A DNA stretch of 51,707 nucleotides, the filler included, from Jimgerdemannia flammicorona (lineage: Eukaryota), in the NCBI GenBank assembly GCA_003990765.1. It is 2 parts of 2 records of this genome, joined end to end, with 100 filler letters (N's around TTAATTAATTAA, not from the genome) between each part and the next. Parts side by side here need not be neighbours in the genome. Positions count along the whole stretch, not along the records: positions 25,910 to 51,707 come from RBNJ01000791.1; 1 more part is not named here. One strand, 5' to 3'. Shown here piece after piece: positions 6,071 to 51,052 of the stretch (position 1 is the first letter of the stretch; every line of letters starts with the position of its first letter). The translations under genes and the position numbers were made by a program. The notes below the pieces were generated by a model that saw only the letters and a list, made by a program, of their open reading frames with translations, was not told the origin of the DNA and did not search any database.

Positions 6071-7175
6071 TATTACACTGAAGGCGTAGAGGGTGTTCAC
6101 GGAAACGGGACTATTTATTGCCTCTAATTATAATTAATCGTAGCCCCATTTGGATACGACGTTTCCGATTACGACATACGCACAGTAGTTGGTGGTTATT
6201 AATGGCCTTCTGCTGCGTAATATTTTCATTTGCTTGGCAACTAATTTGGGATTAACTCGCAGTGAGGTACGCCGTCCCGAGTCAAAAATTTGTGTGGGCT
6301 GAATGTGATGAACCAGGGGTCAATGAGCTAACTATAGCTAGCTAATCAGGTCAGGCAAGTAAATTTGCCAATGAGGAAAAATAATCACTTCCATATGGAA
6401 AAAATGCAAAACCCCACCTGGAAAAAATACAGAAAAATATGAAATCTTAATAAAAATGAGCAGGTTTTGTCAGCCTTGAGATATCAAGAAAAAGCCACAT
6501 CCAAGCAGGTTAACAAGAGTCATACAGAATTATTTTCACTAAGGTATATAACTGAGGTACACTGACTTCTATTATTATTTTTACAATCAAAAATCCATAT
6601 TAATGAAAATAAATATATTGAGCATATTCTCAAGTTCCTGAAGCAATACCTATATTAATAGTTTGATATAGATTTATAAAAAAAATTATATTATAATAAT
6701 ATCTTTTGTGAAAGATAAGAAATTTTGGTAAAAATTGATGATAGTTAAAAAAAATATATGAAACCCAGTTATATATTTATATTATAATATTTTTATAAGT
6801 TCATTATATGAAGAAATTTACAGAATTCATCAAAATATATATAAATATTATATAACTATAGCTTAAAAGATTGAGATGTATCAATTTTATATAAATAAAG
6901 AACAAAATATAAAGAGTAATAAATTTCAGTATAGTCATATAGTAATTATACTATTCACTAATAGAAATATCATAATGTCTTCATAAGTTTAGAAATCTAT
7001 AGAATTTAGTAAAAATATATATAAATACTATATAACTATAGCTTAAAAGGTTGAAATGTACTGATTTCTAATTATAGTTATATAATTTAGTCCTAAGTAA
7101 TAATTTATAATATAAGATAATAATTTAAAAAGCTCAAGACCCATTAAGAGGTTCAATATATATCTCTTTGACTGT

Positions 7176-17600: not shown

Positions 17601-19668
17601 GTCATGTATTTTGCATATATTGCACATTTTGCATAGGATGATATTATTGCCAATGATGTCATTATGGGTGATATTATCTCATTTAGTTAGGGGGAAAGCA
17701 AGGAGATCTAGGGCTCTTCAATCTATAAGATTCTCTTTCATAAAATAAGGGACAAATGTGGGGTCTTAGAGAGATCTAACTTAGATGCTGGGGCCTTTAA
17801 ATGCTGAGATCAATCCTTGTAGGAATTGATCAAGATTGTCTTTGAAGATAGGGTTCCAGAACTCTCCTATCTTATTACTGTTGAGGATGATAGTAGACTA
17901 GACTTCTGTGACCACTATGGCCTCCAGTATATTGATACAGCAGACTGATAGTTTCTTGAAGTCTGAGGTTCTAGTATACTCCAAGTTGGGAATTGATCAT
18001 AGTATATACCTGAAGATCTGATGGATCTTCTTGGCTATTCTTATTTTGTATATATCTATGAGAGTAGCATTTTATATTTATTAGTAACTGGCCTGAGAGA
18101 ACTTCCAGTAGAGGAGATTTTCTATTTCATACTCCTGCCACATCTAGAGGTATTTTGTAATAATTTCACAGTCATATTTAGTCTTAGTATATTTTTCACA
18201 TCTTTTAGTCAGTCTTTTCTTATTATTTCTTGAATATTCTACTATGTTCTGTTATCTTCTACTTGCTTAGAAATCTTCTCTCAGTACCCAGATACCACTA
18301 GAACATTCTTGTCTTTCTTTGGTGCCAAGTATCTTATCTTAACTAGTCATAGAATCTTTTGGAACATTGTAGAATAGTATTAGTCAGCTTTGCTGAGAAT
18401 CTATTTCTTGGTATTTCTCTTTCTTTCCAAGATCCTTCCAGATCTTTCTTTCAGATCATGTATAAATATCCTTGTTCTCTGCCTGAATAAAGCTCAGAAT
18501 ATTTTCTCCTAGAAATCTTTTGAGAACACTTGAACCTTTAAGTATCTCTTCAAGCTACTTTAAACCAACTAGAACTTCCAGATTTAGCCACTTCCTCTTA
18601 AAGAAACTAGAACTATTACACTTGGTAGCAGTGGTGTTATTATACCTTGCCTTATTAAGAAACCTCACACAAATTCGGAAACCAGTCACAACTAGTCACA
18701 TAAACCCGAAATGAGCCACGAAGAGACAGTTTATTAGCCAGACCCCTCTGCTACAGAAGAAGTAGAAGGATTGCAGCTTAACATAGAAGATATGATTAAT
18801 GCTAATTCAAGAACTGCAAGCACAACTAAAAATACAAACTATGGGAACATCAAATCCTACTATAGCACTAGTTAGTTTCAAGTCACTCAAGCCAGATACC
18901 TTTGATGGCCATCAAGGAGAACTATCTATAGATGCATGGACCTTTCAGTTGGACCAATACTTCAAACTCACAAGAATGGAAGATAATATGTAAGTCCAAT
19001 TTGCCACCACACTTCTCCAAGGAAATGCAGCTATCTGGTGGCACAATTATATTATGGTTATATCTGTATACTCATATGTATGAATCAGAGATTGGGAAGC
19101 TTTCAAGAGAGCCCTTCACAAGCAGTTCAAGCCTGCTAATGCCACCAAGCTAACCAGGGATAAGCTAGTAAATATCAAGTAACTCAAGTCTATATAAAGC
19201 TACAATGCACAATTCTTGTCAATCCTACTTGAGCTACCAGTAGTATTTAAGGATAAAAAGATAGACTGCTATGTCCGAGGTCTGAAGAAAAACACATAAG
19301 TCAAGATCAAGCTAGAAGAGCCCAAAACTCTTAATGAAGTCATAAGAATTACTAATAAATTTGATATCATTATCTTTGGCAACCACTTTGAACCAGAATG
19401 CCACAAAAAGAACCACTTCAAGAACTGCTACAGAAACCAACCAAGGACAGTTGGCCTGGCACCAATGGACTTAGATACTATGAACAAAAAGAACACCAAG
19501 CTCACCCCTGAAGAAAAGGACTATCTGAAGAAATCTGGAGCTTATTTCTTCTATTGCCAAACAGGACACATTGCAACAAAATGTCCTAGGAAGACTAGCA
19601 AATCCTTACGACCAGTCACTGTGTTGTCCAAGGACACATCTGTCAATCCCACTATCAGTCAACTTGAG

Positions 19669-20079
19669 CTTAAGGTCAAGAAGCTTTATCTGAAGGCCCA
19701 GGTCTCTCAATATCAAACAGAAGGAGCCATTGATCTTGACCTACACTCAGTCAAACAAGTCACTATTTCAGTCAAGGGCTATACTCTGATACCTACTGAA
19801 ATTTCAGTTCAATACCCTGAAGAATATTATACTAGAATTGTACTGTGATCAGGACTCAGTATCAAACATCATTTGGATATAAGTACTAGTATCATTGATC
19901 CAGACTTTTGAGAATAAGTTCAAGTCTTGCTTATCAATCAGAAGGATCAAGACTATACAGTTAAAGAAGAAGACTGAGTTATGCAAATGATTCTGGAAAG
20001 AGCCAGTCAACTCAAGATTACAGAAGTCCAAGAACTCTCTGAAACCAAATGAGATCAAAAGAGTTTCAGTAGTACTGAT
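19669..20079 (+). other. dUTPase domain of family B, between the gag zinc knuckle and protease
   Basis: LKVKKL..GAIDLDL..*SGLS..SIIDPDF*E*V..ED*VMQM..TK*DQKSFSSTD are degenerate versions of AGxDL, RSG, GVIDxDFRG, GDRIAQ and RGxxGFGSTG, in frame with gag and PR. Confidence 0.85.
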
Positions 20080-23000
20080 CAAGCAGCAAGTCTTAGTGAT
20101 AATCAAGCTCAAGCTATACTCATTTTCAAAGGACTAGTTAAAGGAAAAGAAGTTCAAGTACTTATAGATAGTGAAGCTACAAAGAACTTCATTAATCAGA
20201 ATCTCATCAAAAGCCTCAAGATCCTCACCAAGTCTATACTTAAAAATAACAGTATAGTCACTGCAGACAGTACTCTACACTCCATTGAGTCAATTGCCAC
20301 CAAACTGCCCATCAAGATCCAGAAATATTGGGAATGAGTAGACTTTGAAGTTGTATCACTAGGAGATCATGACTTGATCTTAAGAAAACTCTGACTCATG
20401 AAACATAATCCAGATATTGATCAGTATAAGAATGAAGTCACTCTACTTCAAGATGGAGCCAACATTACTATCAAGACAGACAAGACCACAAGTAAGACCC
20501 AGATTGCAACACTGTCAGCTATACAGTCCAAGAAAGTACTCAAGAAGACAATACATGCCTTTATTGTAATGATCCACCCCAAGAAACAAGACAAGAGACT
20601 ATCAGTCAATAAAAGCATCAAGCTATTGCTAGAGGAATTCAAAGATGTCTTTTCAGACAAGCTACCTAGTCTACCACCTATACGAGAAGTTGATTATGAA
20701 ATTGAACTGACCCCCAGAGCTATACCACTTAAGAAACACATATACTGTATGTCATCACTTAAAATTGAAGCAGTTAAGAAGGAACTAGAAGAACTACTTG
20801 CACAAGGAGCCATTCAGCCAAGCAAATCTCCTTATGGCTCATCAGTCTTATTTATCAAGAAGAAGGATGATACTTTGTAAATATATATAGACTATTATAC
20901 ACTCAACAAACTCACTATCAAGAACCACTATCTACTACTCTTGATTGATCAAATATTTGATGCTCTCAAGAATGCCAAGTACTTCACCAAGTTAGACCTC
21001 ATGTCAGGATACCACCAGATCTGAATCAAGCCAGAAGACATTCTCAAGACTGTATTTATAACCCCCTTTGGACTCTACAAATTCCTGGTCTTAGCATTTG
21101 GTCTCACCAATGCACTTGCCACATTCTAGACTCTGATGAACAAGATATTTAAGGACCAACTATTTATTTTCCTATTGATATATCTTGATAACATTCTGAT
21201 CTTTAGTGCAACTAAAGAAGAATACCTTAAACATATTCAAATAGTTCTGGAGATCCTGCAAAAACACAAGCTTTATACCAAGCTCAAGAAGTGTAAATTC
21301 TTCAAGGAACAAGTTGAATACCTTGGCCACATTGTCTCTGTACAAGGAATTCAAGTAGACCCATACAAGATAGAAGTAATTGAAGAATGGCTCATTCTGT
21401 TGAACCTCATAGAACTCCAATCCTTCCTTGGTCTAGCTGGCTATTACCACCACTTTGTCAGAAACTTCTCTGGCATTGCCAAGCCACTGACTAACCTCAT
21501 GAGGAAGGCCCCATACTCAGACCACTATATATCTTATACATACCTGGGACCTCTTCTGTCAACAAGCCTTTCAAGAACTCAAGAACTATCTGACTCATGC
21601 TCTAGTTCTACATAATGCAGATCAAGGCCTAAAATTCATAGTTACTACTGATGTATCAAAATTTGCCATTAGAGCAGTCCTATTACAAGATAATGGCAAA
21701 GAATATCACCTTATTGCTTTTGAGTCCCACAAGCTGGCCCTAGCTGAACAAAAGCTAGCTACTTATAAGAAGGAACTGCTAGCAATAATACATGTACTAG
21801 ATTACTGGCAATGCTATCTAGAAGGTGTTGAGTTTAATGTCATTACTGATCATCAATCTCTCAAGTATATTAACACCCAACCTACTCTATTATGTCTATA
21901 AGCTAAGTAGAGCCTCAAGCTTCAAACCTTCAATCTGACAATCATCTATAAGTCTGGCAAGACACTTATAATACCAGATGCCTTATCAAGATACCCAGAC
22001 CTCATCACAATTATGCAAGTCACCTTGGCATTAGAATTTCTAGACCAAATCAGGCAAGCTTATAAAGAAGATACAGTTGCCACTAGAGTTTTTTCAAATG
22101 AACTCAAGGATATATATACTATTGAGAACAATCTGATCTATCATCAAGACAAAGTCTACCTACCTAAAAACATAAACCTATGCTATAAGGTTTTGCAAGA
22201 ACACTATGATTCCCCTCTTGCTGGTCACCTGGGAATTGAAAAGACCATCAAGAACATCCAATGATGCTATTATTGGTCAAATATAATTAAGGAAATCAAG
22301 AACTATGTTGCTAGCTATGATCTATATCAGCACAATAAGTCTACCAACCAAGCATCTGCCAGTTTGCTATAACTACTGCCAATTTCTACCAAGAAGTTCG
22401 AGTAAGTCACTATGGACTTTATAACTCAACTACTATAAACTCAAGCTGGTGCTGATACTATCATCATATTTATTGACTACCTGACCAAGACTATGATTGC
22501 TGAACCAACCACTACCAATGCTACTGCACTCAAGATTGCAAGAATCTTTTTCAAGTCTATCTTCTATCACTATGGTCTACTATGAGTAATTATTGGCAAT
22601 CATGACCCCAAGTTCACCAGCTACTTCTGGAAAACCCTCTTCAAGACTCTGGGAACTTAATTGGCTATGTCTACTGCCTTTCACCCACAAACTGATGAAC
22701 AAACTGAGTACATGAACAGAACTCTAGAACAAATGCTTAGAAACTATGTTTCTTATAAGCAAGATGATTGGGACATCTATTTGACTTATATAGAGTTTGT
22801 ATATAACAATGCTGTCCAATTATCTACTGGTCTTTCTCCTTTTCAGTTACTCCATGATCAAGATCCCAAGACTCCTGCAAGTCTATTCCCTTTCAAGAAA
22901 ACCAGTCAAATATAAGTCTCAACTGCTAAGAACCTTACAGACAAAATGGGCAAACTACTCAAGATTGCTACCATGAATCTTCAGAAGGCTTAATAGCATC

Positions 23001-25809: not shown

Positions 25810-25909
25810 NNNNNNNNNNNNNNNNNNNNNNNNNNNNNNNNNNNNNNNNNNNNTTAATTAATTAANNNNNNNNNNNNNNNNNNNNNNNNNNNNNNNNNNN
25901 NNNNNNNNN
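25810..25909. other. Artificial assembly linker: N44-TTAATTAATTAA-N44
   Basis: 100-bp spacer carrying a six-frame stop cassette at 25854-25865. Confidence 0.97.
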
Positions 25910-25926
25910 AAAAAAAAAAAAAAAAA

Positions 25927-26632
25927 CCTGCAGTTTGTATTTTCTGCTGTTCTAGTTGTGCTTGAAGTTCTTGGATTTGATAGGCCATAGCATTGATCAT
26001 ATCTTCTATGTTGAGCTGTAATCCTTCTACTTCTTTTGTAGCAGAGGGGTCTGGCTGGTAGACTGACTCTTTGTGGCTCATTTCAGATTCATATGACTAG
26101 TTGTGACTGGTTTCTGAATTCATGTGAGGTTTCTTAATAAGGTAAGGTATAATGACACTGCTGCTACCAAGTATAACAGTTCTAGTTTCTTTAAGAGGAA
26201 GTGGCTAAATCTGGAAGTTCTAGTTGGTCTAAAGTATTGAAGAGATACTTAAAGATTCAAGTATTCTTGAAGGATTTCCATGAGAAAATATTCTGAGCTT
26301 TATTCAGGCAGAGAACAAGGATATTTATACATAATCTGAAAGAAAGATCCAGAAGAATCTTGGAAGAAAGAGAAATACCAAGAAATAGGTTCTCAGCAAA
26401 GCTGACAAATACAATTCTACAATGTTCCAAAAGGTTCCATGACTAGCTAAGATAAGATACTTGGTACCAAGAAAAGATAAGAATGTTCTAGTAGTGTCTG
26501 GGCACCTAGAGAAGGTTTCTAAGCAAGTAGAAGGTGACAGAACATAGTAGAATGTTCAAGAAATGACAAGAAAAGACTAACTAAAAGATGTGAAAATGTA
26601 CTAAGACTAAATATAACTGTGAAATTGTTATA
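25927..26632 (-). mobile_element. Family B copy B2: 5' LTR (26632-26172), PBS and gag start, truncated at the gap
   Basis: Reverse-complement match to 18156-18845; MSHKESVYQPDPSATKEVEGLQLNIEDM. Confidence 0.93.
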
Positions 26633-28632
26633 GTGCATAGGAACAGACTCAAGAAGTACTACAAACCTATATAAGAGAAGCAAAACATAATGATCACCTG
26701 TAAGGTTCTAGTCTGAAAATCATAACAGTATATCCTATAACCAGCAGACAATCTGTTTGGATCATTCTTTAAGGGATATGGTATCAGCAACTACTTATTT
26801 ATGAGACTTTTGAAGCCAGAAGAGTTCAAACCATCAACTGATTGGTCAAGATCAGAATCAGGCCCTTGCTCTATATGAAGATAGCAACTCTTCACCATCA
26901 TACCAAAATACATAGGGAAGACATTAGCCCATAAATACCACTTTTTAACCCCCTGCCAGAGGTTATGGGATTAGCAAATTTTTCAGGACTAGATCAATGA
27001 ATAAGGATATTCAAGAAGATCCTTATTCAGAAGGAAGATATAATGGTGATCTTAGAATAATGACATCAGTACAGAAGACAGCCTTTCCTTACAAGTCATC
27101 AGATCAGAGCACAAGAAGATTATATGGCATAACTTACCCAGGCTACAAGATGAGCAATGATGACTAACTATGAGTCATTGGGACTACAAAACAGATATCT
27201 CAAGGAATATAAAAGAAGGATCAAGGAACCACAGTAGCAGTAACTCAACAAGACCCACTAATTCTGAAATAGCTCAAAGACTTACCATAAACAAAATGTC
27301 TGCTGCTCACCAAACCTCAAGGTTAAGAAACCACCAAGGTCTCTCAGTCTAGAAAAGAATGTTTCAAGATATCTGAAGAGCTATAAGGACCTGCACCACA
27401 AGGACTCCTAGTGTCAATCTAGGTACTGGTGACCCTTATCATTATATTCTCTATCACTATAAGATGGAAACAAGAATCACCATTGCTACCAAATATCTCC
27501 AGATGTAGCAAAAATACAAAATAGGAAACATTATCTGTCAGGAATTCCCTCAAGCCAGCCCTCAAGAGTTACAAGATACCACTTCTATAGATATATATAA
27601 AATAAGAATAGCCAAAAAGATTTATCAGATCTTCAGGTATACACTATAGTCGATCTCCAACTTAGAGTATACCAGAGTCTCAGACTTCAGGGATCTGTCA
27701 GTCCACTGTATCAATATACTAGAAGCCATTGTGGCTACAGAAGCCCCATCCACTATTACTCTCAATAGTGATGAGATAAAAGAGTTCTGGTATCCTATTC
27801 TCCAGGACAACTCAGATCAATTTCTACAAGGATTGATCTCAGTATTCCAAGACCCAAGTATCTAGATTAGACCTCTCCAAGACCTCACATTTGTCTCTTA
27901 TTTTGTAAAAGATGACCTTATAGACTGGAGAGCCTCTGATCTCCTTGCTCTACCTATTACCAAATGTGATGACATCATTGGTGATGATGTCATCCTGCAC
28001 AACATATGCAAAATATACAATGAAGTATGTGAAATAGATGAAACATTCACAGACCTCATCTTCTTTGAGGATAGTGATGAGAGTGAAGCCCCCATAGTCC
28101 TGAACTTTCTGCTCTGAGTTCTTAGTGACACTGAATTCTGCTAGTATCCTTTTTTTGTATACATAACAGTTAATCCTTCTACTAGCATTCTGATCCTGTG
28201 TGACTCTGAATTCTTCTAGCATCCTTTTCCTATACAATCAAAATTCTACCAGTACTTTGAACTTATACAATTATCTATATCAATACTGAAATCTGTACCA
28301 ATAACTATAGTTTTTTATGTTCCAGTATTTTATTTAATTATTGGAATTTATATTTAGCTTTATATCTTAGCAATCATTGAATTATATTATATATAAATAT
28401 CCCTCTTATTTTCTTCAAAATAAAGTCAGTTCCTCTCAGTATAATATATACAATTCCTTGTAGGCAATCTAAAGAGATAATAAGACAGTTTAAAGATAAG
28501 AAGTTTGAGGACTATAAGACCTTGGGAAGGCACTCTAATAAGAACTTACTTATAACAAACTTGAGTAGTCTAAGAAATACACCTTGAAGAGAATTTGACA
28601 TATTTGAAGGACTCAGCAACCACTATATGATA
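26633..28632 (+). mobile_element. Family C 3' end (copy C2): integrase tail, PPT and ~1594-bp LTR (27039-28632)
   Basis: VHRNRLKKYY integrase end at 26633; PPT agaaggaaga, then tataatggtga (tgtaatagtga in copy C3 at 51053); similarity to C1 ends at ..atgata (28632). Confidence 0.88.
27296..28117 (+). pseudogene. ORF inside the family C LTR (~273 aa, 5 in-frame stops, no frameshift), homologous to A ORF3
   Basis: Four of the five stops are sense codons in copy C3. Indels versus C1 in the 3' third are 15, 9, 3 and 30 nt. tataaaag lies ~85 nt upstream in all three copies. Confidence 0.8.
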
Positions 28633-29485
28633 GTATATATATTTTGACACCCTGTCAATCCTGAGCATAGTTGTAATATACTTACTATACTCTGTCTTTC
28701 AATTATATTTTAGAATCTTATAGAATGAGAATATATCTATGGTAATCCCATCTGGACTCTTTTTTTTTTTTTATTTTATTTTTTTATTTTTATTATGCAT
28801 TACCAATTTTTGTACTACATTTATAAATATGTACAAACCTTGCATATCATCCTGTAATATAATCTTATATAGTTTGAAATATATTTCCACTTCTCTTACT
28901 CTCTCCCTTGAATCTCTCTCAGGATCCTAATATTTCATCAATACTTATATCTTATATTCAGTTTTTCTTTTCCTTTTTTTGTCTAGAAAGAGCATTGAAA
29001 ACTTTATTATGGTCAAGTGATATAGAGGTTCTCTTTATTCAAAGTATATCATCTCTATCTATATAAATATATTAGGTTTGATTATATTATTATTAACTAG
29101 ATTATATAATTTAGATTCTATAATAGAATAAATCTTTCAATCTGATAATTAGCTTGAAGTTATTATATTTATCTAAACTAAGACCCATAAAGGACATATA
29201 TTATAATTATCTCTTCATTTCCAAAAATGTCTAGGTTATTTATATATTGTGACGTATGGTATGAAATAGAAACAGGAAATAGACATTTGATCGTAGTACC
29301 TAAATCCGATTTCCAATTTAGTATAGTCTTTTACTGCGGACACTGCATCTAAAACATTATCAGTGAAACTCTTGTTACTTTCACGAATTTCAGATAGGAT
29401 TTCACATGAGATTCTACCTGAGAATTTCACATGAAAAGACTTAATACTTAGCCGCATATTTAGTAGCAGAATTAGCACACAAATC

Positions 29486-29719
29486 TGTATAAATAACTCA
29501 GTATTTTAGAGTGAATAAACCTCAGTCAGAACGAGTCAGATCGAAATAGTTCAAAGCAAAGAGATAGCAAAGGAACTAGTAAGTCTGTGGGCAGATACAC
29601 TTCAAACTCACCCACCCTTCCCCTGCCACTTCAAGAGACTCTTCGAGAGTCAGAACAGTCAAGTTTTCAAGATACAGAAATCCAACATACTTTCAAGAGT
29701 AAGCATCCGCTATGTTACA
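29486..29719 (+). repeat. 5'-truncated family A LTR fragment
   Basis: Matches the 3' half of the A1 LTR and ends ctatgttaca; no PBS follows. Confidence 0.9.
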
Positions 29720-30097
29720 ATATAATAATCATAAACTGATGATAATACTAATTTTTAATTATCTATAGTATCATGAAGAGAGGTTGATTTTATTGAAAAT
29801 ATATAAGTTATATATTTTATATATTACTAATGAATGATATAAAACTGATGAAATGGTATAATCATATTGAGTTGTCAACTCAACACTCTTGCCCAATGAG
29901 ATATATAACTCAAAAAAAAGAGACTGTAATTTGGTAGTAAAAAAATAAAAAACAATACTATATATGCAAAAACTGGAACTGTATATAACTCAGAATTACT
30001 ATTATAAAATCCTATATCTAAGGAATTTTTTGTAGGTTAAAAAGTGTTCTAAAATATCCAAAATATCTGACATATCTACAAAATACAATATATGTAC

Positions 30098-33000
30098 CTC
30101 CTTTGCCCCCTTGTCCCCAATCGAATTTCCAGACCAGTCCAATGAGGTGAGAGGAAGATGGAGGGAGTGAATCGGAACAGAAAAGACAGAATTACACCCT
30201 TGGAGATCGATTTGTCGCAAAAATGGTTGAGTAAAGAGTAGAGCTATGTCAAGAGTTTTCAAGTTGCTATTATGAGTCAGGATTACTTCCATCAACTTTG
30301 TGTTATCCAGTTGGAGACACTGGAGGACTGGACAGTTGGGCAGATCCAACCTTTCAAGTAGAGGGGTCTGCAGCTGAATTTCTTGTCGATTGGCACACTC
30401 TTTCATTACCAGACGTTTGAGGGATGGAAAGTAAGCTGGAAAAACCTGAGATGACGTGACATCAAGAGACGTGAGAGATTTGATCCAGGGAGGGTTTTCG
30501 ACATGGCCTACGAAGGTAAGTTGTGGGCAACAACTCAAGTTCAAATACTCCAGGAAATCACCGCAGGCATTGTGAAGCGCTTTAAACCCTGAATTGTTGA
30601 AGGCTTGAGCGCCGCGTAAATCGACACTGGTGATGTGGTGCTTGCGGCCTTGAAAAGCTAAGGTGTTGAAATGTTCTTTTGTCAGATAGCGGCTATTGAC
30701 AAACTCCAGACTCGTGTGTGGAGTCTTGTCATCAAAGAGGACGTTGAGAATATTTTTCTCCTCCTCCGGAGTATGGATGGTCATATCCCACTTTTTGTCC
30801 AGCACCCACCCTCCTTCTAAACGCCTTATAAGAGCCTCGTTTTCGGCTTTAATGTTTTGACGCAAGTCCTGAAATCTATCCAAGGCTTCATGAGGACCAG
30901 TACAAAGCAATTTCCGCCTTTCATGATCTGCAATAAGTGCATATGCATCAATCTCAAGGATATTCAGTATCTCTTTGGTATTGATTGAAGAGATGGCATC
31001 CCTTGTATTACGTCGTTGATAGAGGCTTTTAGTCACGCTACAAAACCTGCCCTTCAATGTTAGCCCTTGATCAAGAACTTTGCCATAGCTCTTGGCAACA
31101 TAAGGCTCAAGCTTGCTAAGAAGTTCGATGTGGGTGAGGTGTGGATTTTGCAAAACTTCCCTTTGCAAACGATGAGCCTTGCGATAAAGATTTTCCATAG
31201 AGAGTAAAGGTAGTGGAAGGCGCAATATTGTTCCTTTATGAAACAGTTGTTGACGTTGATCTGCAGTGCAAAGCTTTTGATAGGCCATTTCAACGGTTTC
31301 CAGCTCTTTCATCCAGGCGGTTAAAAATTTATCGATTTCCAATGTGTGAATCTGCTCTCTTACAACTGAGGGGAGTGGATCGCGCATCTGTGATAGACAA
31401 AATACCAAAGTTTTGGCTTGTAACTGAGGGATTACCTTAGAGGGAGCACCAACACCTTTGCCTTGATAAAGGACGCCAGGCAGAAAAGCATGATCGTTGT
31501 CGATGGGAATGCAACGCCGCCTGTCAGCACTGAGGATAAAGTTGTCTTCCTTGCTATCTTCAGGATTGAGCAGCATGGAAGCGACAATCAGTCGGCTTGT
31601 GAACACTGGATCCAGGCGGGTAAAGATGTCGTCGTTTTCCCAGACTGTATGAAGAACATTTCCCCTAACGGCTTGGTTTACGAGGACAGGATACGGTCCT
31701 TTCTTGGGGTCATGAAACATAAAGAGCTCGCAAAAAGGTATGCCCTGGAGGCTCCAGCCACGTAAAAAGCGAGTGACGGCATATTCATAGCCTGGAAGTT
31801 CTGGATAAGCTTTGAAGAAGAGTTCTGGGGTATCTTGCGGATAAAAAGGTAACAGTGCTGCGTCCTGTGAGTGTTGTATCACCTTGGAATTGTCCTTTTT
31901 TATTCAATATGCGCTTGCTGAGGTTCGAGTTGAGGTGGCGCTCCCCCGGAAATGCGCCTTTTACGGTCAAAAATGGTTCGTCCTCTGGAGCAGGGCCACG
32001 CGGCAAGGCTTTAGCGATGGTGAGGCGCCATGCGAGTTCAGGGTTGTGTGGCAGGAAGGGGTCAAACATCCGGGTCGAAACCGCCGCGATGTCGGCGCCA
32101 TATTGGACTGGATGGTTGCGCATGTGATGCTGGGCGTCTTCCCAAAGGTTTTCCGCGAGCTCGGCATTGTTGAGGTTGAAAAATCCCTCACTTTGTAAGA
32201 GGTAGAGGTCTTGGAATAGACGGCCAAAGGCAAAAACATTTGTGGAAAATTGCTGCGCATAATTCTCCAAAACATGATCAACCATGGGAAACTTGTCAAT
32301 TGTGAGAGAGGGCAAAAATATTTCTTTGAATCGAGCAGGGTCTTCGTTCTGCACTTGAGAGGTGGCCGATTCCAGCAACTGCTTCACTGTAGTGCCATCG
32401 GAGAGATTCCAACCGTCATTGAGGAGAGATACAATCTTCAAATCACCATGATAGAGATGGTCGAGCGCCTCCGTAGGAGATGGCAATTTCTTTCGGAGTT
32501 CGGTGTAATAGTGGCCGAGCAACGGATCGATCGCGTTGAAGAGATCTTGTGGAGTGGTAACTGGGTTTGCCAACACTTGCTTGAGCTTCTCCAGAATCCC
32601 GCGCAGTGTCAAGGGCATTTTGAAGGGTAATCCTAGATCATTCCAGAGGTCATCCATCTCGTTTGCCGCCAGAGGAGGGTGGCCATGAATTAAGGTGGAA
32701 AGAATAGTCTTTTTGAGAGTTGAGTATTCTTGATTCTTGACTATCAAGGTATTGGCCCAGGCCAGGAGGACAGCTTCCGGCACTAGGTTTTTGAAGGCAA
32801 TACGAGTTTTTTGAGGAATGGCGTGATCCATCAACGGTAAGAGGTAGAGAAGAGATTTGTTGTTGACACGGCCGTGTTGAATACTAGGAGCGAACACTTC
32901 CTCGTTATCAATGCTGACCAGACTACTTGTGGAGGATTCATAGATGAAGTTGTCAGGTTTGCCGTCGGATGGTTGTGTCAGTAGGGCACCAACGACTTGC

Positions 33001-33971
33001 CGGGCATATAGATCAACATCAAGAGAGGCCAAGATGTTCTTCCCTTCGTCCTCAATTTGCAAGATCTCTTCAGCCGTCTGCCCTGGAATCGCTTTAGAAG
33101 CTAGCAGTATACAAGGTTCTGTGTTTTCTGCATCGAAAGCCGGAACGAGGACTACCAGGGTGGTGGCGGGCATGGGAATGTCTAATAGCTGATAGAGGCT
33201 GTGGGCGAGAGTGTTGTTGCCCGGCCGTATAGGGGGAAAGCCATTTGCTTTAAAATATATATTTGCGGTATGTCGATCGTCTTTGGGAAGGAAGCTGACG
33301 GGATGATTGCCGGTATGGACTGGCCCATGGCATATGTGATCGGCAATTTTTTGAGTCACCCTGTAAAATTTCCAGAGCGAAAAACCCTCCCCCATCATCA
33401 GGGTTTTGTGAGCAAGCAGCTCACGCAAAAAATGATTCCGGTCGTACTTTTGGTCTTTGCCTGCGGCGCTAAACTCCTGCATTGCATGGATGACACGCCG
33501 TTTGTAGTTTTCGTAAAAGGTTTTGGTCTGCTCCAGAGCCTGGATCTCGGCGTAGTTCTTAAGGGCTTTTTGGAAATCGGCGATGGTGGCAATATACTGA
33601 TTCAACTTGTGGAACTCCTGGCCTTCTCCAATCGTTGCATTTTTCATGGATTCATCAATCTAGCTATGTCTTTTCGGCATGAGAGCCTCAGGGGGTATAG
33701 GACCGTCCTTGAAAAGGAAATTCCACAGACCCAATAACTCGCCGTCCATTCGAATATGATTGCAGAGGGTTTCGAAGAGGGCATAGTGGACCTGACGGGG
33801 CACATCGGGCTCGGCTTGGGTGACTTGGAGGATTTTGTCGGTCAAAGAGTCGGGGTTCGGCGCAGCGGACTCGGGGGATAAAAACCCTAAAAAGCGGGAC
33901 TGATCTTCAGGCGTAAGGTGCCGTTGGGCACCGGGCTCTCGATCCTGAGGAATTCGCTCTTCACGATTCAT
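30098..33971 (-). pseudogene. Intronless ~1290-codon protein with two tandem PI3/4-kinase/HipA-like domains and C-terminal LRRs; in-frame TAG at 33660-33662 and +1 frameshift at 31843-31847
   Basis: Kinase 1: IYFK..LLTQPSDGKPDNFI..LVSIDNE. Kinase 2: LFFK..LLNPEDSKEDNFI..IPIDND. LRRs: LEYLNLSCC, LERLDLPNC, LTSLDWSGNSIGDKGAKE. The three provided ORFs join across one stop and one extra T. Confidence 0.82.
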
Positions 33972-36900
33972 TGTGTGGTGTGGTCTGGCGTGACGATGAC
34001 TGAAAATGAGATGTCCAGTTTCCCTTCGAACATCCTTTTATTGGAAGGCTGAGCACGAAATATTTCAAATTCGTAACTGCCAAATTAAGGACCAAAGGAA
34101 TCGGGGACTCAAGGTCACTGGTCAGATCGCTTACAAAACATTTGAGCAACCTTGGGATGCTGCGACAAACTGAATATATCCATTGCTGTGAACTCAATTT
34201 TGTGGGGCAAAGATACAAGTCATGTTGTTCACATCGATGTTCAATTCCTTGGAGGCTATTTTGTGCCAAATATCTTACACGGCAAACCGACCTTCAGCAC
34301 GTTGTATAAATTGGCGGGGTATCCTTCCAAGCCAAGGATTTGAGCTCGGTGGTATGTGTCACATTTGTCTACACGCCCTACACTGAAGCGTAGTTTCACC
34401 GGGCACGTGCCCTTACTACATTCACGTCTAAGCCTCCTGGTCTCGCTATGCAGCTTTGGAGTAGGCGTTTGCTTCAACCTGAACCATCTTACTCGTGGCT
34501 CCATTTGACAACCCCACCCTCAAGCGCGCCATACGCAGCACCATTGAGATCAACCTCTGTTCCTAGGATAGAGGTATGTTCATCCCGTTTTTCGACGATC
34601 GAAGATAAAGGACGGATTGGAGAAGTATGTGAGTCTTAATTCCGATACTCTGAACGATTTATTCGCCATCATGTAACCACGTTTCCTTGGCAGGCGCCAC
34701 TCAACTTTCGCGAACCGTGGATAAAGGGTTGTGAGCGGTAGGTAGGTGAAGCCTTTTATTATTATGGGGGGGTTATTGGAGTGGAACGGAGAAGAAGAGT
34801 GTAATGAATGGGTAGAGGTGGATCGAACCGGCCCGGCGACTTGCACATCTCGCAAAACCATACACCCTTTTTGTCCTCTCCATTCCCACGACTCTACATA
34901 AGCGCAGGATGATTCTGTCCCAATCAATGCTGTCCTTTCTACTTTCTATCATCCCGAAGTTCTATCATCCCGAAGCTTAACGTCCTCCTTCACCGTCCGT
35001 GACTAGAACTACAAGCAAACTCGCCTCTTCTAGTGTTAATGTCGTATCCCGGTCGGCGCCCATATATTATGCAACAACTGCGGTTGGCTTGACGCGCACG
35101 GGCGAGTCAACACAGATAGGAGGGAGCGAGACGAGCAGGGCAGATATTGTAACACCAGCAGTCGCGTGTGGTTAAAGGGGCCACGTTTGTGAAGGTGGCG
35201 TTGTGGTTAGAGAAAGACGATTTTAGGCAAGAATATTATTTCATTTTATGTTACTTCTTTATTAATAAAAATAGATAACCTCCGATCATCAGCTGCACCC
35301 GTATTCGCAACTGTACACCCGAACCTGATTTGTCTTGCCGTTCCGCCACTTGCTGAACGCAATAAATGTCGGTTGTCTGACAAAATCCCTTTCCCTTTAG
35401 TTTTTCTCACCAGACCGTTCTGCATAATCTTAACAGACACTGCTCTGCATTCACGTCGTTGTTTAGGATATGGTTTACTGGATATTCTGCTAGTGCGTGT
35501 AACGGCCCGGTCTGGAGTGAAACGGTGAATAAATCCAACGGAGTTGAAAACGGTTTGGATTTGACGGTAGTGCATATTGCCGTTGCTGGTATTGCTACCC
35601 AATGGATCGCTAGTGGGTGGGGGTCAAATTCATCAGTTGTATACAAGAAGATAGTTGGGGTAACATCAATATTCTTATGATAAATAATGGAAAGAAAGCA
35701 TAGAGAGTGAGTCTTTGCGAATTTGCGTCTACGGATGATGCAGTGAAAATCATGCTTGAACGTTTGAGGTGGGATGAAAATCAGAATTTGCAAACGATGA
35801 AAGCAACGACATTACAAGACACTATAGCAATGGTTACAATACTGATGCAACTGAAAATATTCCACAAGTATATATCCTGATTCCTGATTACAGGGACGTC
35901 GGTCTCCCAGGATGTTGCAACTCTTTTTCAGATGGGTGAGATGCTTTACGGATTGAGAGGACGAATTTTGGTCTGTATCTTATGCATGTGGCGGTGGTCT
36001 CTGGAAGCTAACAGAGAATTTGAGTTCCAAATAAAATTCAATTTTTTTTTTAAAAAAAAAAAAACCTCTTCAGTGAGTTCAAATATCGTGATATTTGCCG
36101 ACATTTTAATTCGAAATTCTGGGCCCAAATAGCAAGTTGAGATATAATATTCATGGTGAAGATACCGTGCAAGCGAGACGATGAACGTACGGGCAGTTCT
36201 TCGGTAAGGGAGGTTGTGGGTGGAGGAATCGGGTGGTTGCAGGGTATTTGTAGAATTTTTTTTTTTTTTTTGCTTGTATGTATATAATATCCTGCATGGA
36301 TATGTATGATAATTACGTATCCTTTCGATATACAGAACCTTGTACCACCGGAAGAGTGACACGTCAGATAGGCTTACTTATTTTTACCACAATTTTCGCA
36401 TTACTCGAACTGTTCGCAAAAATGCGGGCTCACAGTTCCTGCGAGGAATGGCAATAGACACATTGTAATTGGCGAGGGTGATGGCACCAAACCAAGCGCG
36501 ACCTTGATGACTCTTATCGTTGCAGAATGTGCCATCGCATGATGAAAGACATGGAAGTCATCGAATGAGGAAGACATCCAAACTGTGGGTGGGGCACTGG
36601 GGGGGGGGGGCTACTGTTGTAATAGGGATGGCTGTAAGAGAAGGAATGGGATGGTAAGGCTAATTGATCGATGCGGACATGTATCGATTCGGGGAACCGA
36701 TTCGATCGAGCGAGCAAGTGTCTTTTCAAATTCTCCTTGTCAAAAAGTGCTCCAAGCATGACAGGATGGGATAATATTTGTCTCATCTTGATCTTATCTC
36801 ATTCCAGTCTTGATCGAGAACGTGATAATATCATCCCAGTTTTGGGTGAGACTGAGGTGCCACCATTTCTGTCATTAGGAAATGTATCAAGCATTTCAAA

Positions 36901-37762
36901 TTCTGGCGTGCTATGTGATCCTGTTCCGTTTATAAAAGGTGGAAAAATAAGCGACCGCATTATCATGAAAAGGCAACATCCTTATCAACCACGTGCACGA
37001 GTTGGTCACATCGCAGGTTTCAACACTTGAACACTCCTCCACCTTGGTGCCACCGTTACAGCAAAAGCCGAAAGCCAAGACCTCCGTATTTTTGCAGATT
37101 GGACTCAGAAAGCCATCAGCCGTCAAGCGGGATGCTCCGGCCTCCGAATACCGATCTAGCAACTACAACTCGGACAGAGCCAGGTTGTTCACGACGAGCT
37201 CAGAGGTGTGTCTTTGAGAGAGTCTGCATAAAAAAACAATGAGAGGACGATAATGAAGGCAAATATAAAGATAGATGTGTAAGTATATCTATAGAAGTCT
37301 TAGAGAGCGCACGCGTCTACCTTGGGATTTGCATTTTTGTTAGAACTGATGGTCTTTCTACATCTCTACACATTCCGAATGTTTGAATATATTGACTACT
37401 CTTTTTTTTTTGTTAATTTTTTTTACTGATATCCAAAACATTGCACCCATCAGATCGGAAGTGTTCGCGTGACCTATCTTTTCGCATATAGACATTTTGT
37501 CTTCAGTCTTGTGATGCACAGATCATAAATTTCAAAGCAAACATTAAAGCCGCGACCCTCACTTTCAAGGCAAAAAAATATCAGAAGTTACAATAAACTG
37601 TTCAGAAATTCCAGCCCTCAATGGAAAAATACCGATCTAACACATTAAACCAAATTCACTATACCATGGTAGTGGAGAAAATTCTAATTCCACCTATTGT
37701 TCAGAACTTTCCTGAGTCTTTTAACCTTTATCACTCCCTCACAACTATCAATACTACATATG

Positions 37763-40737
37763 TATAATACTTTAGAGTATATGGCATAGCATCATATTGT
37801 TGGCAGTATCAAATATTAGAACTAATAGTAAATATTGCCCCTCACTCTCACATAGTAGAGATATACATATAGCTTCTGTAAGAGAGTACTTTATTAGAGT
37901 ACTATTACATAGTTCTGAAAGGGTTTTCAGGAAGTTCTGGATATTCTGGAAGACCATTTTCTTAAGGTCAAGATCAATTTCATACAGAGTATATCCTCTA
38001 TACTTATTGATTTCAAGATTAGGTTGAAGTCCTTTTCCAGACTTATTCTGAGTATTCAGAATTTTCCATATTTTAGAAAGTTCAGGGAACTAAGACTAGC
38101 TTAGTTGAATTGGCATATTGCTACAGATAATACCCAATCAGGAAATTTTGGAATCTGGTTAGAAGTGAAACCTAATATAGTACAGATTTACTTAGGAGTA
38201 ATTTGTAGATTATTAAATAGGTTTATTTGCTATTTATGATATTGCTATTGGCTAATATTAGGAGTAATATAGGAAGGGATATTTGTGTAGAGAAGTGTTC
38301 TTGTCTTATTTATCTGTGTTTTTATCTTAGTTTCTAAGATCTAAGTAAGTAGGTATTTATACTAATAGGAGGTTATCTGAACTATGCTAAATATGAGTAT
38401 AGTACTTAGTACTTTGATAAGTCAGAATACAGTCATATAGTACAAGTGTGAACTGATATATCAAGCAATTGACTGACTGTTGAGTTAGTATATATATAAT
38501 TATATAAGATAAGACTAATCTAACTATACTAATGACTGCTATACTATTTATAGATTTTAGATACTATCTGGATATTCTTTAATGAGGTCACCATTGATGA
38601 TATTATTCCTGATGAAATAGTTATCTAGGAAGAGTGGTTCTTGGAATATATCTCTCTGTTTATTTATATAGTAATATGTTGGAACTATATCAATATCCTA
38701 TAGAATAGTACCATCTGTATCATATGCTGAGTATGGTGTTAGTGGGTAGAGAAGGAGTATACTATCTTTGCTTTCATCAGATTTACTGTTAGTATACCTT
38801 TAGTAGGTAATGGTGCTATGTATTACAGAGTTATAGTATGCTAGTAGCTGTGGTTTATTTTACTTATACTTGAGAGATAGAGTTATTGTTCTATCTTAAG
38901 AATTGTCTGGAGGTATAGGTTGTATTCCCCAGTCTCTTCATTATAGTTAAAGTAATCAGATATGAATGTAGATTAGTATTCATATCAATGGTCATTATTA
39001 TAATAGATTTTATATATGTTTATGAATTGTTATAAGTTTATTAGCAAAGTTGACAGAATAATCAGAGTTGGTAGAGATCCTTAGCTGAAGATCATATTGA
39101 TATTTGAGAGATCATTATCTTCTACTTTGTTATTATCAAACTAGATTATATCATAGATATCATTCTTGGTATATTTAATTTAGAGCATTTATATGATATG
39201 GTCATCAGGATATAGAAAGGATCTGTCTGTAATTTGAGCATACTTAATATACTTATTATTGAGTTCTTATACCATGTTATCAATTTGGCCATAGATCAGA
39301 GTGGCAATCATTTCAGTAGTAGTAACTTAAAGATAGGGAATAAAGATACTATACTTATAAAAGAGTTCTTAGTATTTGTTAGTAATAAGTTTCTGATATT
39401 GAGACATTTTAGTAATATCTATATCTAGTGCTCCTAATGAGTCAATTTAATCTGGATTTGATTTGGATTGATTTGGATTGAATTCCATCTAGATCAACTC
39501 ATTCAGAGCACTATCTATATTATAGTGATGGTTAACTATATCTTCTAGAAGATAGCCAATCTAGTAGTAGCTTAAAATTTGTCTAATTCAGTAGACCTTA
39601 CTAAGTATGTTCAGGGCATTCTATTAGACTTCTATGAAATAAAGAGGTACTAAACTATAGATATTCATAAGGGGCAGAGGAGCTGTGACTTCATTGATAA
39701 TAGTATTTCAAATATCAGTACAGATATGGTTGTAGATTTCAGTAATATCTGAGTATAAGATTAAAAATTATAGTTCATGTTTAGTTTGTTATAGTTCTCT
39801 ATTTTGACATACTGTATATTTAGTATATATGTTTTTGGTCCTCATTGGTAAGATCTTGTCTTTATAAATCTTATATTTCATAACTTCAAGTTGACTCAGC
39901 TTTATGATCTGTAACTTTGGTTTAACTCAGCTATATGATCTGATAGATGATTTCTGAATTTATTCTGAGAGTGATATATAATTTTGTTGGCTTGGAGATT
40001 ATACACTTACAACTCTCTCCTTCTTAATTTTTGATCCTCATTAAGGTCTTCTAATTTGGTCTAGTGTTGTTATATCATTTTAAGAGTCAAAAGTCCAATA
40101 ATATCTATTTTTCTCAGAAAGTAACATGCTCATAGTACAGTTGTCTAATATATTGAATTTATACATTAAAGGGTCATATGTTCAATACTATATACCAGAA
40201 GTGATTTTGATATCATTCACCACTAGAGAATTTCCTCTAAGGAATCTTCTTAAATATCTATACCTCACTTTCCACTAGTAGTATGGGGAGAATAGGCTGG
40301 CTTTCAGTTTTGCTATTTTCCTAAAAATTTAGTATTTCTTTTATTCTTGATTTCTGAGTTCTTAATTTTGTTTGTGATAATTATAAGGGTACTTTTAATA
40401 CTATTCAGGAGGGATAATAGATAGTATAAGAATAATAAGTATTGAAATATTTAAACAAGTTGCTTGAAGAATCATATTTTTGAACTAAGTTGGTAGTATT
40501 CTAGAGGTTTTATTTGAGTTCCCATATAGGATTATGGATAGGGTAACCTTTCCACTTGATAAGGTATTCCAGATGGCTCTTGTGACTATATTTGTTGAGT
40601 ATTTGTTAACTTTGTATTCTTCTTGATCATTAATCATAACAGATGCTGGTGGTTTTGTAGTTTGATTTAGAAATAGCTTATTATTATTTTTATTATATTA
40701 CTTGAGATATTAAATATTAAAAATAGAATAAATCTTG
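37763..40737 (-). mobile_element. Family D chromovirus 3' end: integrase tail, chromodomain (~40630-40470), PPT and a long LTR starting at 40011 (distal end approximate)
   Basis: EEYKV..LEYLIKWKGYPIHNPIWE; aagaaggagagagt then TGTAAG at 40011; heavily AT-shifted. Confidence 0.7.
39030..39760 (-). pseudogene. Degenerate ORF downstream of the family D PPT, probable homologue of A ORF3 and the C LTR ORF
   Basis: ICTDI*NTI..QILSYY*IGYLL..QKLITNKY*ELFYKYSIFIPYL*V in a single frame. Confidence 0.5.
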
Positions 40738-43700
40738 ACTAAGCTTCACTTAGTTCTGAACTGTTTCAGAGTTGGTTTATACTATTCTAAAAGTATTAGT
40801 GTGTTTTATTTTGTCTTAAATATATTGGTTTTACATACAATTGCAAATTCATCTGTCTAAGACTTATGTGTGAGATATTGTATAAAACTAGAAGTAAAAC
40901 ATAGTAATAAACGAGTGTCCTGACTCCCACAGAGTTCCCTTAGCTGTTTTGGAAGCTTGGCAGTTTGCCTTCTTCCTTTAGACCCCTAAAACGTTTTTTT
41001 TCTAACTATGAACCATGAAAAACTTCAACAGCAACAGCAATAGGCCACCTTGGCTGAACAGGCCAAGTTTATTTGACAGGTTACAGAAGTTGTCACAGTC
41101 CATCTCTGCCCTACTTTACTGAATCCAGCTATCATGATTAATTGTGAACAATAGTGTGTTATTAATTCTCTCTTCCTCTGATAGACTGAATGTATTAGAG
41201 GCCCAGCTCCTGGACCTGATGAACAACCCAATGGTATGGATGATGATGCCCTCATCAACAATAATGGTAGCAATAAGGAATTTCTTACTACTACAAGAAT
41301 AAGAGCCATTGACTGTTTTACTATCTTGCCCACCTTTACTAATATCATTTCTACCAAATACATCCATGTATATATACCTCACTCCTCCCAGTCTCAGGAA
41401 GCTCATCTACTGTACCCCAGAGCCCAAGGGTGGTGTCTTTCAAACTCTCTCCATTGATAAGGCATTCCTCAACAATTTCTCCAAAACTACTCAGGATGTC
41501 AACTATATCCTTGCTAACCCACAATGTATAATCTACAATATGCTCCACTCTGTCACCGTCCTCCTCTATGCCCTTGAGCTACAGAGTAATGGGGCTGATA
41601 TTCATCAAGGCTTGATCTATGAAGCTATCATTGCCTCCATGGTAGAAAAACTCCAAGATTCCCTCTGGATCAGATTCCACAAAGCTGAAAGCATCCACAT
41701 CTGCTGACATATCAATCTCACCAAGGCTGCTGGATGGTCTCCTGCCCTCATCTCTGTATATCACATGGTTATCTCTAATTCTTGACCTCTTCAGCACCAA
41801 TTTCATCCACTATTTTCATGATGATACCAAATATCAGAAGTACTGACTTACAGTCCAAGTGGTCTCCAGCAAGTCCTCTATCTCTTGGAGTAACTCCTTC
41901 TTTGCCTATGGCAAATTCACCTCTTGGAGCTAGGGCCAGAAAAACAGATCTTGGGATGATCAATGCTCTGACTTCTGCCACTCTCAACAATCCTCTCAGA
42001 ACTGTACTCCAAGTCAACAGGACAGCTTCCAGAGCTGGACTCCAGGGCCAGATATATCAACAACTACTACCAATATCTGAAGGATCCTCCTCTATATCAA
42101 TCACTAGTCTTGAAGGTACCCAATATCTCTAAAATAGACACCTAACTGGCTCAAGTCTCCAAATTGGTTTGGCAGGTACTGGGTGTCAACCACTGAGTGA
42201 ATTATATGGCCTACAGTAAGATATATATTGACTAGACATACCTCCTGACCCTGCTATGCTTCCAGCCCTACTTCTCATACAAATAAGGCATGACTGCTAT
42301 GGAGAAGGCTCTGGTAGACACTGCTATCCAGAACTTCTTCAACAAAGAGGCCATCTATGAGGCTCATTCTGGAGAAGAGCTCTTCTTTTCCAGTATCTTC
42401 ACTATCTCCCAGATTGACAAGAATTGGGCCTCACTCAATACATATTTACTGAATGAGTTCATACAATGATTATACTTCAAGATAGAAGGTATTCAAATGC
42501 TCCACCATATGGTATATCTGGGGAACTTCCTCATCAAGATAGATATCAAGGACACCTACCTCTATGTCTCTCTTTATCCTACTGACCAATAATTTCTAAC
42601 CTTCTAATAGTGACAAATCAACTGGAAATTCCAGACCATACTATTCAGCCTATCCTTGGTCCCTCAGATTTGGACAAAGATGATGGCTGCCATTCTGAAA
42701 CCACTACAGTAATATAGCATTCACCTTACTTACTATATTGACAACATTTACCTCCTAGCCTCTAGCCACAATAAAGCTGTTTACTATAGCCAGTTGGTTC
42801 ATAACTATATGGAAACCCTGGGGTTTCTCCTTTATCTGACAAAATATATATAAGACTCTAAGCAAGTTCAGACATTTCTCAGATTTCTGATAGATACTAA
42901 TGCTATAGAGCTATGCTTACCTATAAACAAGATATGTAAGATCTACAAGAAGATGGCTTCCCTCCTTTGTCTGGTCTCTGAATCCAGCATCCTGATTCAC
43001 AAAGTGGCCTCTCTAGTTGGTCTATACAACTCTATAACCCAGGTGAATTTTTCTGCTTACTTCTGTATCTAAGCACTCATCTATGATATACAGGCCACTC
43101 TCTGTCATTCTGATTAGAATGGATAAATGACACTCTCTCCAGCATCATTGACTGACCTCTGCTGGTGGTCCTATGAACTGCTGGAATGGAATGGCTATTC
43201 TCTCCTCACTGAGGTTCCTGAGATCATAGTGAATACAGATACCAGCAATATGGGATGGGGTTTCAAGATATCCTCCTCCATCACCAACATCATTCATATA
43301 GTATAGCAAGTGGCTGACATCTGGACATCCTCAGAATACTGCCTGTCCATCAACTATTATAAGCTGAAAACAGTTTTCTTTATCCTATAGATCAACTCAC
43401 ACTACTGGCAGAACCATACAGTCCTGATCCAAATAGACAATATGACTATACAGGTGTTTATCAACAAACAAGAGAGCTCTCTCCACTACCTCTATGCTAT
43501 TATAGCATACATTTATCTGATCTGCATAAAGCACTATATTTGCCTCTGGGCAGAATATCTCCTAGATTTAGAGAATGTCCAAGCAGACTTTCTGAGCTAT
43601 TTGCATTCTGACTCTGATGACTGGAAGCTACACCCAGTGGTCTTCTGGCATCTATATCACCTGTGGGGCCTGATTCAGCTTGATCTGTTTACCTCCTGAA

Positions 43701-50100: not shown

Positions 50101-51052
50101 CAGATATTGATCTTTCCAGTTCTTCAGCCAAAAGATCATGGAAGTCAAGAAGTTGGTGAAAACAGAAAGAGGAAAGAAAGAATTTGGATTTACAGAAAGA
50201 AGAGTATTTGCTAGAACTGAGATTACTAAACTAAATCACAAGAAGGAGAAAACTACAAACAAGCCTAGCTATACTATTAAAGATGAATTTCTACTCAAAA
50301 AGGAACTCAAGAAGCTACTCTATAAATTTGAGAATATTCTGGCCACAGACTTTAAGAATATCAAGAGAAAGACTCTATACTACTATTATGATATAGATAT
50401 AGGAGATACTGAACCAATTTACCAAAAAGTAAGTCCAATTCCACCTGCTTATAATGAATAGCTCAGAGAAGAAATCAAGCAGATGGAAGAAGCCAGTATC
50501 ATCAAAGAAGCCAGTAGTCCTTGGGCTTCACCAGTTGTACTAGCTCTAAAAAAAGAAAGCAAACTAGGAGAATTTACTCCAAGACTCTGCACAGATTACA
50601 GGAAGCTCAACCTGGCTACAAAGAAGGATCATTAATCACTGCCCCTTATCAGTGACATTCTTATAACTCTGGAAGATAAAGCACAATATTACAGTATTTT
50701 GGATTTATACTCAGGATTCTACCTGATTGGTCTCACTGAAGCAGCAAGTTAAAAATCAGCCTTCATCACAACAGATGAAACCTATGTCTATCTGCAAATG
50801 CTATTTAGAATATATAATACACTACTATGCTTTCAGTGAATAATGAATAAAATCTTCCACTATAACATAGGAAGATAGATGATGGTTTATATGAATAATG
50901 TTATTATCTATAGTAAGACAGCTGAAGAACATCTGCAGTACATCCAGCAGATAAAGGAATTATAGTCTTTATATCAAATCCAAGAAGTGTAAGTTTGTAG
51001 AAATTGAGATCTCCTACCTTGGCTATATAATTAACTGAGATGAAATATATAT
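47183..51052 (+). mobile_element. Family A copy A3: 5' LTR (47183-47648), gag, PR, dUTPase (~49783-50200) and RT, cut by a family C LTR
   Basis: Colinear with A1 7380-11090; more degraded than A1. Confidence 0.94.

Follow-up and report, generated by a model that had tools for sequence, protein, structure and literature searches.

The analysed DNA (51,707 nucleotides, hereafter the window) comes from the genome of the fungus Jimgerdemannia flammicorona (assembly GCA_003990765.1) and joins two contigs, C790 and C791, parted by a gap of N's at 25810–25909. The feature under study lies on the second contig, C791 (RBNJ01000791.1), and is a minus-strand coding stretch running from an ATG at 33971 to approximately 30100, with two tandem kinase domains followed by leucine-rich repeats (LRRs); it is colinear with paralogs elsewhere in the genome, with 75–80% DNA identity. 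This copy is a pseudogene, with an in-frame stop, a frameshift and a lost tail, and it probably represents a recently inactivated member of a fungal family that was founded by horizontal transfer from an intracellular bacterium and then multiplied. The features of the locus were as follows:

33663..33971, minus strand: 5' part of the gene, comprising its first 103 codons, without a signal peptide; the start codon is common to 9/9 aligned copies
33660..33662, minus strand: premature in-frame TAG
32436..33416, minus strand: kinase domain 1, predicted phosphatidylinositol 4-kinase (PI4K) type II-like fold, with FK, DGKPDN and IDN motifs
31013..32051, minus strand: kinase domain 2, split by a frameshift, with FK, PELPGYE, DSKEDN and IDND motifs
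31845..31850, minus strand: frameshift near 31847
30179..30646, minus strand: Cys-containing LRR region, also present in bacterial relatives
30092..30151, minus strand: remnant of a 28-residue ribonuclease inhibitor (RI)-like LRR array, about one repeat (LRR_6, E 1.4e-6)
25910..30090, no strand assigned: AT-rich, CpG-depleted repeat DNA in place of the LRR tail; pieces of it recur elsewhere in the window
34400..35657, plus strand: divergent spliced transcript without a long open reading frame (ORF); introns 34574–34693, 34742–35006 and 35368–35466; conserved islands of it lie upstream of eight other family copies

The initial annotation had described an intronless gene of about 3.9 kb with balanced GC content and intact CpG dinucleotides, lying near fungal transposable elements and encoding two atypical kinase domains and both Cys-containing and RI-like LRRs, and this description was borne out. 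The GC content of the gene was 0.475 and the CpG observed/expected ratio 0.78, versus 0.10 (26000–30000) and 0.03 (37800–41000) in the flanks. The gene can be regarded as intronless because three paralogs, on contigs C8027, C3198 and C6533, form uninterrupted ORFs of 2391, 1622 and 1446 amino acids, respectively; compared with these, the window copy, up to the point where it is cut off, showed only an in-frame gap of 15 nt and a frameshift of 1 nt. Introns as the cause of the breaks in the window copy were ruled out, since the paralogs read straight through. Homology with the paralogs ended near 30100–30140, from where AT-rich repeat DNA abuts the 3' end of the gene, and the window sequence to the left of 30100 held no LRR tail. 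The kinase-region motifs FK, DGKPDNF/DSKEDNF and IDN, that is, the Lys, the D-x-K-x-x-N loop and the IDN motif, were kept in the window copy, and the two kinase domains were homologous to each other in a hidden Markov model comparison.

The two long pieces of the window gene matched at least 32 and 42 contigs, respectively, and at least 50 different contigs together, many of the matches being fragments. Besides the three whole intronless ORFs, a copy with a single frameshift was found on C8691; these four copies were 67–75% identical, the chief difference among them being how many 28-residue LRRs they had (24, 10, 5 and 9 in C8027, C3198, C6533 and C8691, respectively, counted with a loose pattern). 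The ratio of nonsynonymous to synonymous substitution rates (dN/dS), calculated by the simple Nei–Gojobori method, was 0.20–0.27 in pairwise comparisons of the three whole copies outside the repeats and 0.17–0.37 by domain; thus, the whole copies are under purifying selection. The pieces of the window copy gave 0.21–0.31 against the three whole copies, and its inactivation is therefore considered recent. In the C6533 copy (L020:203-4540), domain 2 lacked the Lys, the Asn of the loop and the DND motif though the ORF was whole, which makes it a kinase–pseudokinase pair, while domain 1 of the fungal proteins carried Asp or Asn where the bacterial sisters keep a Glu. In 36 canonical LRRs, the entropy was highest at repeat positions 8, 10, 11 and 13 (2.2–2.95 bits), on the exposed strand face, and mostly 0.6–1.8 bits at the free helix positions; pN at positions 8, 10, 11 and 13 was 0.35–0.61 versus an overall pS of 0.46, the scaffold positions being fixed by the search pattern. 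Such variation is compatible with relaxed or diversifying selection on a binding surface; it is no proof of immunity. The GC content at third codon positions in the family (0.51–0.52) lay between that of host ORFs (n = 4, 0.61–0.63) and that of bacterial relatives (n = 3, 0.37–0.44), in small samples. Single-repeat LRR matches elsewhere in the genome looked like decayed tails of the same family in all four cases examined. Public J. flammicorona protein fragments of two locus-tag series matched the family, one of them with 100% identity to C3198 over 144 amino acids, and each of the six fragments examined (five looked up by name) started no earlier than residue 924, downstream of both catalytic cores; thus, the kinase cores are missing from the public gene models examined.

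Structural identity was assessed with an AlphaFold2 model of C3198 residues 1–1060 (pLDDT 84.5, pTM 0.81). The best structural match was PI4K type II alpha (PDB 4pla and 4hnd; Z 16.1 and 16.0, root-mean-square deviation 3.4–3.7, approximately 250 residues aligned in VIA-align), the alignment of the top match (Z 16.1, deviation 3.7, 256 residues) spanning domain 2; the top rows of a Foldseek search were likewise PI4K type II (E 2e-4). CotH (Z 11.6), actin-fragmin kinase (11.3), CtkA (9.5), Vps34 (9.3) and HipA/HipT (8.9/8.7) followed; CotH, actin-fragmin kinase, CtkA and HipA/HipT share the common superfamily fold, with Z values clearly below that of PI4K type II. According to the model, both kinase domains have a PI4K type II fold that is not HipA-specific. 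The fold is thus closer to PI4K type II than to HipA, and no HipB-like partner ORF was seen beside the window gene. At the sequence level, the kinase part had no Pfam match, including PI3_PI4_kinase and HipA_C/HipA_N, and a PDB sequence search that covered the solved PI4K type II chains returned nothing significant. A feature search of the ESM Atlas with domain 2 returned unnamed bacterial clusters first, with PI3_PI4_kinase and LepB_N clusters at 0.93, which serves as a lead. The proteins of the LepB_N family (Legionella LepB N-terminal and Rickettsia lipid-kinase effectors) are similar as secreted proteins of lipid-kinase fold from intracellular bacteria, but they carry a single domain, versus the tandem found here, and show no sequence-level Pfam match to the family.

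The family resembles PI4K type II alpha in having the Lys, a D-x4-N loop and the IDN motif in matching order, but it differs in its low identity (12–13%), in its tandem domains and LRRs and in its D-x-K-x-x-N loop, and no CCPCC palmitoylation motif was seen. In this loop, the second position after the Asp is a Lys, which is also the arrangement of ordinary protein kinases. The active-site residues of PI4K type II alpha are K152 and D308, and its closest analogues are protein kinases, according to the available part of the source (PMC3974213); therefore, the substrate cannot be read from the fold, and a phosphoinositide and a protein are about equally plausible.

At E 0.001, a phmmer search of a metagenomic library returned 792 related proteins. 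Among them, 150 were examined; the longer relatives mostly carried both kinase domains. Named genomic sources were an Alphaproteobacteria metagenome-assembled genome (MAG; locus L041, encoding P0013), Caedimonas (L042) and Dependentiae (L043), with genes containing Sel1, patatin and WD40 domains as neighbors; on other bacterial-type contigs, the relatives adjoined NACHT-HEAT, Tn3 or resolvase genes. P0013 had the full family layout, including the RI-LRR tail, and bacterial members also carried the eukaryote-like domains F-box, ankyrin, WD40, HEAT and OTU. The family was present in 6/27 genomes of the order of the L041 MAG and in 3/23 genomes of the Caedimonas order (the query genomes counted, and the genomes being incomplete), as well as in 5/401 genomes sampled from the class of the L041 MAG, those five being of 0.9–1.9 Mb. 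Judging by signal peptide or lipobox, small genomes (0.9–1.7 Mb) and effector-like neighbors, P0012, P0013, P0006 and the proteins at L042 and L043 are putative secreted effectors, whereas the window gene, which has no leader and lies in a eukaryotic context, is not of this kind. The available parts of PMC3482391 and PMC3417536 describe Amoebophilus-type effectors as consisting of a signal peptide, a lipobox, a prodomain and variable cargo. In P0006, P0028, P0039, P0068 and L050, lipobox-like N-termini similarly precede the kinase module, and the C-termini vary across the kinase family, a likeness judged by layout; the differences are that tandem cargo of PI4K type II fold is not described in these parts of the two papers and that the fungal copies have no leader. 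No match to the family was found in a plasmid search. Among viral contigs, there was one weak match (L044:92-1855), to a phage head-region protein with a PI3/4-kinase-like domain.

Phylogenetic analysis of kinase domain 2 included 154 rows (FastTree; duplicates and rows with fewer than 230 profile positions or below 110 bits were left out), of which 52 were labeled as signal-peptide- or lipobox-like by eye and by crude hydropathy. The six fungal copies formed one clade, joined with P0012 and P0013 at a support of 98. The same grouping was obtained in a tree of both domains with 37 hand-chosen rows (99) and in a 23-row tree built under a mixture model with bootstrap (100/98). Strictly, the fungal clade was the sister of P0012 and P0013, both of bacterial type, in a larger clade whose rows were mainly of this type; together with them, it was placed among Caedimonas, Dependentiae and Amoebophilus-like lipoproteins. 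Dictyostelium grouped with a signal-peptide protein and Dependentiae, Naegleria with a lipoprotein group, and the protist-like set stood apart. In approximately unbiased (AU) tests, with groups defined after the tree, both a single clade of the nine eukaryote-labeled rows (p-AU 1e-25) and a clade of the fungus with Dictyostelium-type rows (p-AU 2e-71) were rejected. Homology to P0012 and P0013 started at residues 19–27 of the fungal proteins and 183–221 of the bacterial ones, that is, behind the bacterial signal peptide and linker; therefore, the fungal gene lacks a leader, and its product should be cytosolic. Thus, the trees, the two AU tests and the bacterial genome context agree with the proposal of a horizontal origin from a secreted protein of endosymbiont type, and a single transfer in the direction from bacterium to fungus is considered likely. 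It should be noted that rows of Dictyostelium type (poly-N/Q) occurred in two places of the tree, namely, P0029, P0055 and P0080 in one and P0092, P0152 and P0157, beside Amoebophilus-like lipoproteins, in the other; this split, in rows whose labels are mostly inferred, hints at two transfers into amoebae.

No broad, vertically inherited fungal family turned up among the matches listed, and the named fungal matches were all from Jimgerdemannia, although the gene models miss the kinases and other fungal genomes were not searched as DNA. The endobacteria known in Mucoromycota are related to Burkholderia or Mollicutes. The nearest relatives found here were the alphaproteobacterial MAG and lineages of the protist-symbiont type; the genomes of known Mucoromycota endobacteria were not searched directly.

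The gene was physically linked to host DNA by spliced RNA on the same contig and by a repeated junction. Contigs from runs X1 and X2 are presumed to be RNA, and both show splicing. X1 contigs skipped the GT–AG introns 34574–34693, 34742–35006, 35368–35466 and 37279–37453, with 0 mismatches to the window in the pieces over the last two, and the spliced RNA sits 0.6–1.7 kb upstream of the gene. Pieces from X1 and X2 over the gene itself were only about 88% alike and therefore come from paralogs. Islands of the 34400–35657 region recurred on 14 other contigs. Eight of these carry a family gene whose 5' end lies head-to-head with the islands, as in the window, and on at least three more the stretch examined held no kinase. 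The upstream transcript had no Rfam match above threshold. Other family copies adjoined host-type genes, e.g., BTB-SPRY. An assembly artefact, in which DNA of a co-sequenced endobacterium was joined to fungal repeats, is thus very improbable and largely refuted: the assembly is fragmented (35,354 contigs) and no read or contig examined bridges gene and flank, yet the dozens of diverged and mostly decayed copies, the spliced RNA nearby, the junction repeated on eight other contigs, the host-type neighbors, the lack of a signal peptide and the public fragments in two locus-tag series all speak against it.

An old eukaryotic kinase–LRR family, patchily kept in Endogonales, dictyostelids, Naegleria and a protist and repeatedly captured by endosymbionts, would make the fungal copies native. 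Eukaryotic members in Naegleria and Dictyostelium, bacterial members with eukaryote-like domains and a fold closest to eukaryotic PI4K type II would suit such a history, which is nevertheless improbable, since both eukaryote monophyly and the grouping of the fungus with Dictyostelium were rejected, each eukaryotic group lay among different signal-peptide proteins, the named fungal matches among those listed were Jimgerdemannia fragments only, and the gene is intronless in a genome with spliced neighbors. Slightly less probable again is an indirect transfer, via a protist or a mobile element, or a selfish or near-neutral cargo without a receptor role, such as a toxic kinase or a meiotic-drive-like element. 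Most matches were indeed broken, with only three whole copies and one once-frameshifted copy found, bacterial relatives adjoined Tn3/resolvase genes at two loci, and the conserved upstream module accompanied a subset of copies. However, CpG was not depleted, unlike in the transposons of the genome, purifying selection extended across all domains, the protist-like clades were not sister to the fungus, and the flanks of most copies diverged save for short islands; in the flanks of the 10–20 copies examined, neither shared element ends nor a transposase, as would mark transposon cargo, were seen.

The preferred explanation, a bacterial gene that entered the fungus and then multiplied, has several points against it. 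The identity to the nearest bacterial proteins was only 32–37%, the branch leading to the fungal clade was long, and its sister group was made up of two sequences, of which P0012 is unclassified. The bacterial labels of the tree rows rest on N-termini judged by eye and crude hydropathy, with outgroup taxa lacking names, and the relatives examined were 150 of 792. Family members are present in Naegleria gruberi and Dictyostelium citrinum; moreover, about two dozen metagenome contigs (L046–L070, 31–40% GC) held a large expansion of the tandem-kinase family with many broken copies, next to calmodulin-like, acyl-CoA oxidase and protein kinase genes as well as bacterial-type Mac and SIMPL genes, and this lineage is probably a protist. 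Because of the Naegleria, Dictyostelium and protist-like members, hidden paralogy or eukaryote-to-bacterium capture is possible. The LRR hypervariability is weak evidence, coming from 36 repeats with a scaffold fixed by the pattern and a pN of 0.57–0.61 versus the overall pS of 0.46, thus about equal to pS or slightly higher.

Under the preferred explanation, the donor would have been an intracellular bacterium with a gene for a secreted tandem-kinase–LRR protein, its nearest known relatives being the small-genome alphaproteobacterial MAG and an unclassified bacterial-type contig. Having begun after the signal peptide and linker of the bacterial protein, the fungal gene would give a cytosolic product; it then multiplied through birth-and-death evolution with variable LRRs. 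The encoded protein consists of a helical bundle, two domains of predicted PI4K type II fold, Cys-LRRs and a variable RI-LRR array, and most copies are decayed. In intact copies, the concave face of the variable array might bind a partner or a non-self protein, and the array might thereby control the kinase pair, which would phosphorylate a phosphoinositide or a protein; domain 2 would be the usual catalytic unit, and one domain would be free to decay into a regulatory pseudokinase. This gating of kinase output by LRR binding is put forward tentatively, as somewhat less than an even prospect. Thus, of the two possibilities named at the outset, an acquired gene or an unusual fungal signaling or immune protein, acquisition followed by fungal expansion is probable, whereas the signaling or sensor role we only infer. 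In being cytosolic, in joining a signaling domain to variable repeats, in birth-and-death evolution and, in one copy, in kinase–pseudokinase pairing, the family resembles fungal NOD-like receptor (NLR)-like proteins and plant tandem kinase proteins. Unlike fungal NLRs, it had no NACHT/NB-ARC domain in a Pfam scan of P0003, and its kinases are of PI4K type II fold and not eukaryotic protein kinases, with an immune role that is only putative.

As to the remaining parts of the window, remains of Ty3-type retroelements were found at 7767–11558 (reverse transcriptase, RNaseH and dUTPase ORFs), 19300–21615 and 49717–50458, with dUTPase between gag and reverse transcriptase, and a similar element on C6892. 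A second spliced RNA (36979–37571, plus strand, intron 37279–37453) without an obvious ORF was the deepest non-repeat X1 contig. A GC-rich frame of 257 codons (5357–6127, minus strand; CpG observed/expected 1.0), with a hydrophobic N-terminal stretch and no Pfam family, is probably part of a host gene.

The movement of effector genes from symbionts into eukaryotes has precedents. Among titles and abstract openings, with subscription papers mostly outside, no description of the tandem kinase–LRR family was found, and the available part of PMC12592215 contained nothing relevant to it. The kinase module has no Pfam family model despite its 792 metagenomic relatives; since it is also missing from the six public fragments, annotation-based screens for horizontal gene transfer would have missed the family. 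A broader reading is that tandem PI4K type II-fold effectors of protist-type endosymbionts were acquired repeatedly by eukaryotes, namely, by an Endogonales fungus, dictyostelids, Naegleria and a protist, and gave rise in the fungus to a family of NLR-free intracellular receptors with a variable LRR arm controlling a kinase–pseudokinase pair. This is rather unlikely; if true, the family would also be a trace of alphaproteobacteria that once lived in the fungal lineage, in which, to our knowledge, this group is not known today. As a dead gene, the window copy is of limited importance in itself. For the family as a whole, transfer of an effector-type gene from a bacterium to a mycorrhizal fungal lineage is well supported, after which the gene lost its export signal, expanded and came under selection; the intact paralogs open the questions of substrate and ligand to direct test.

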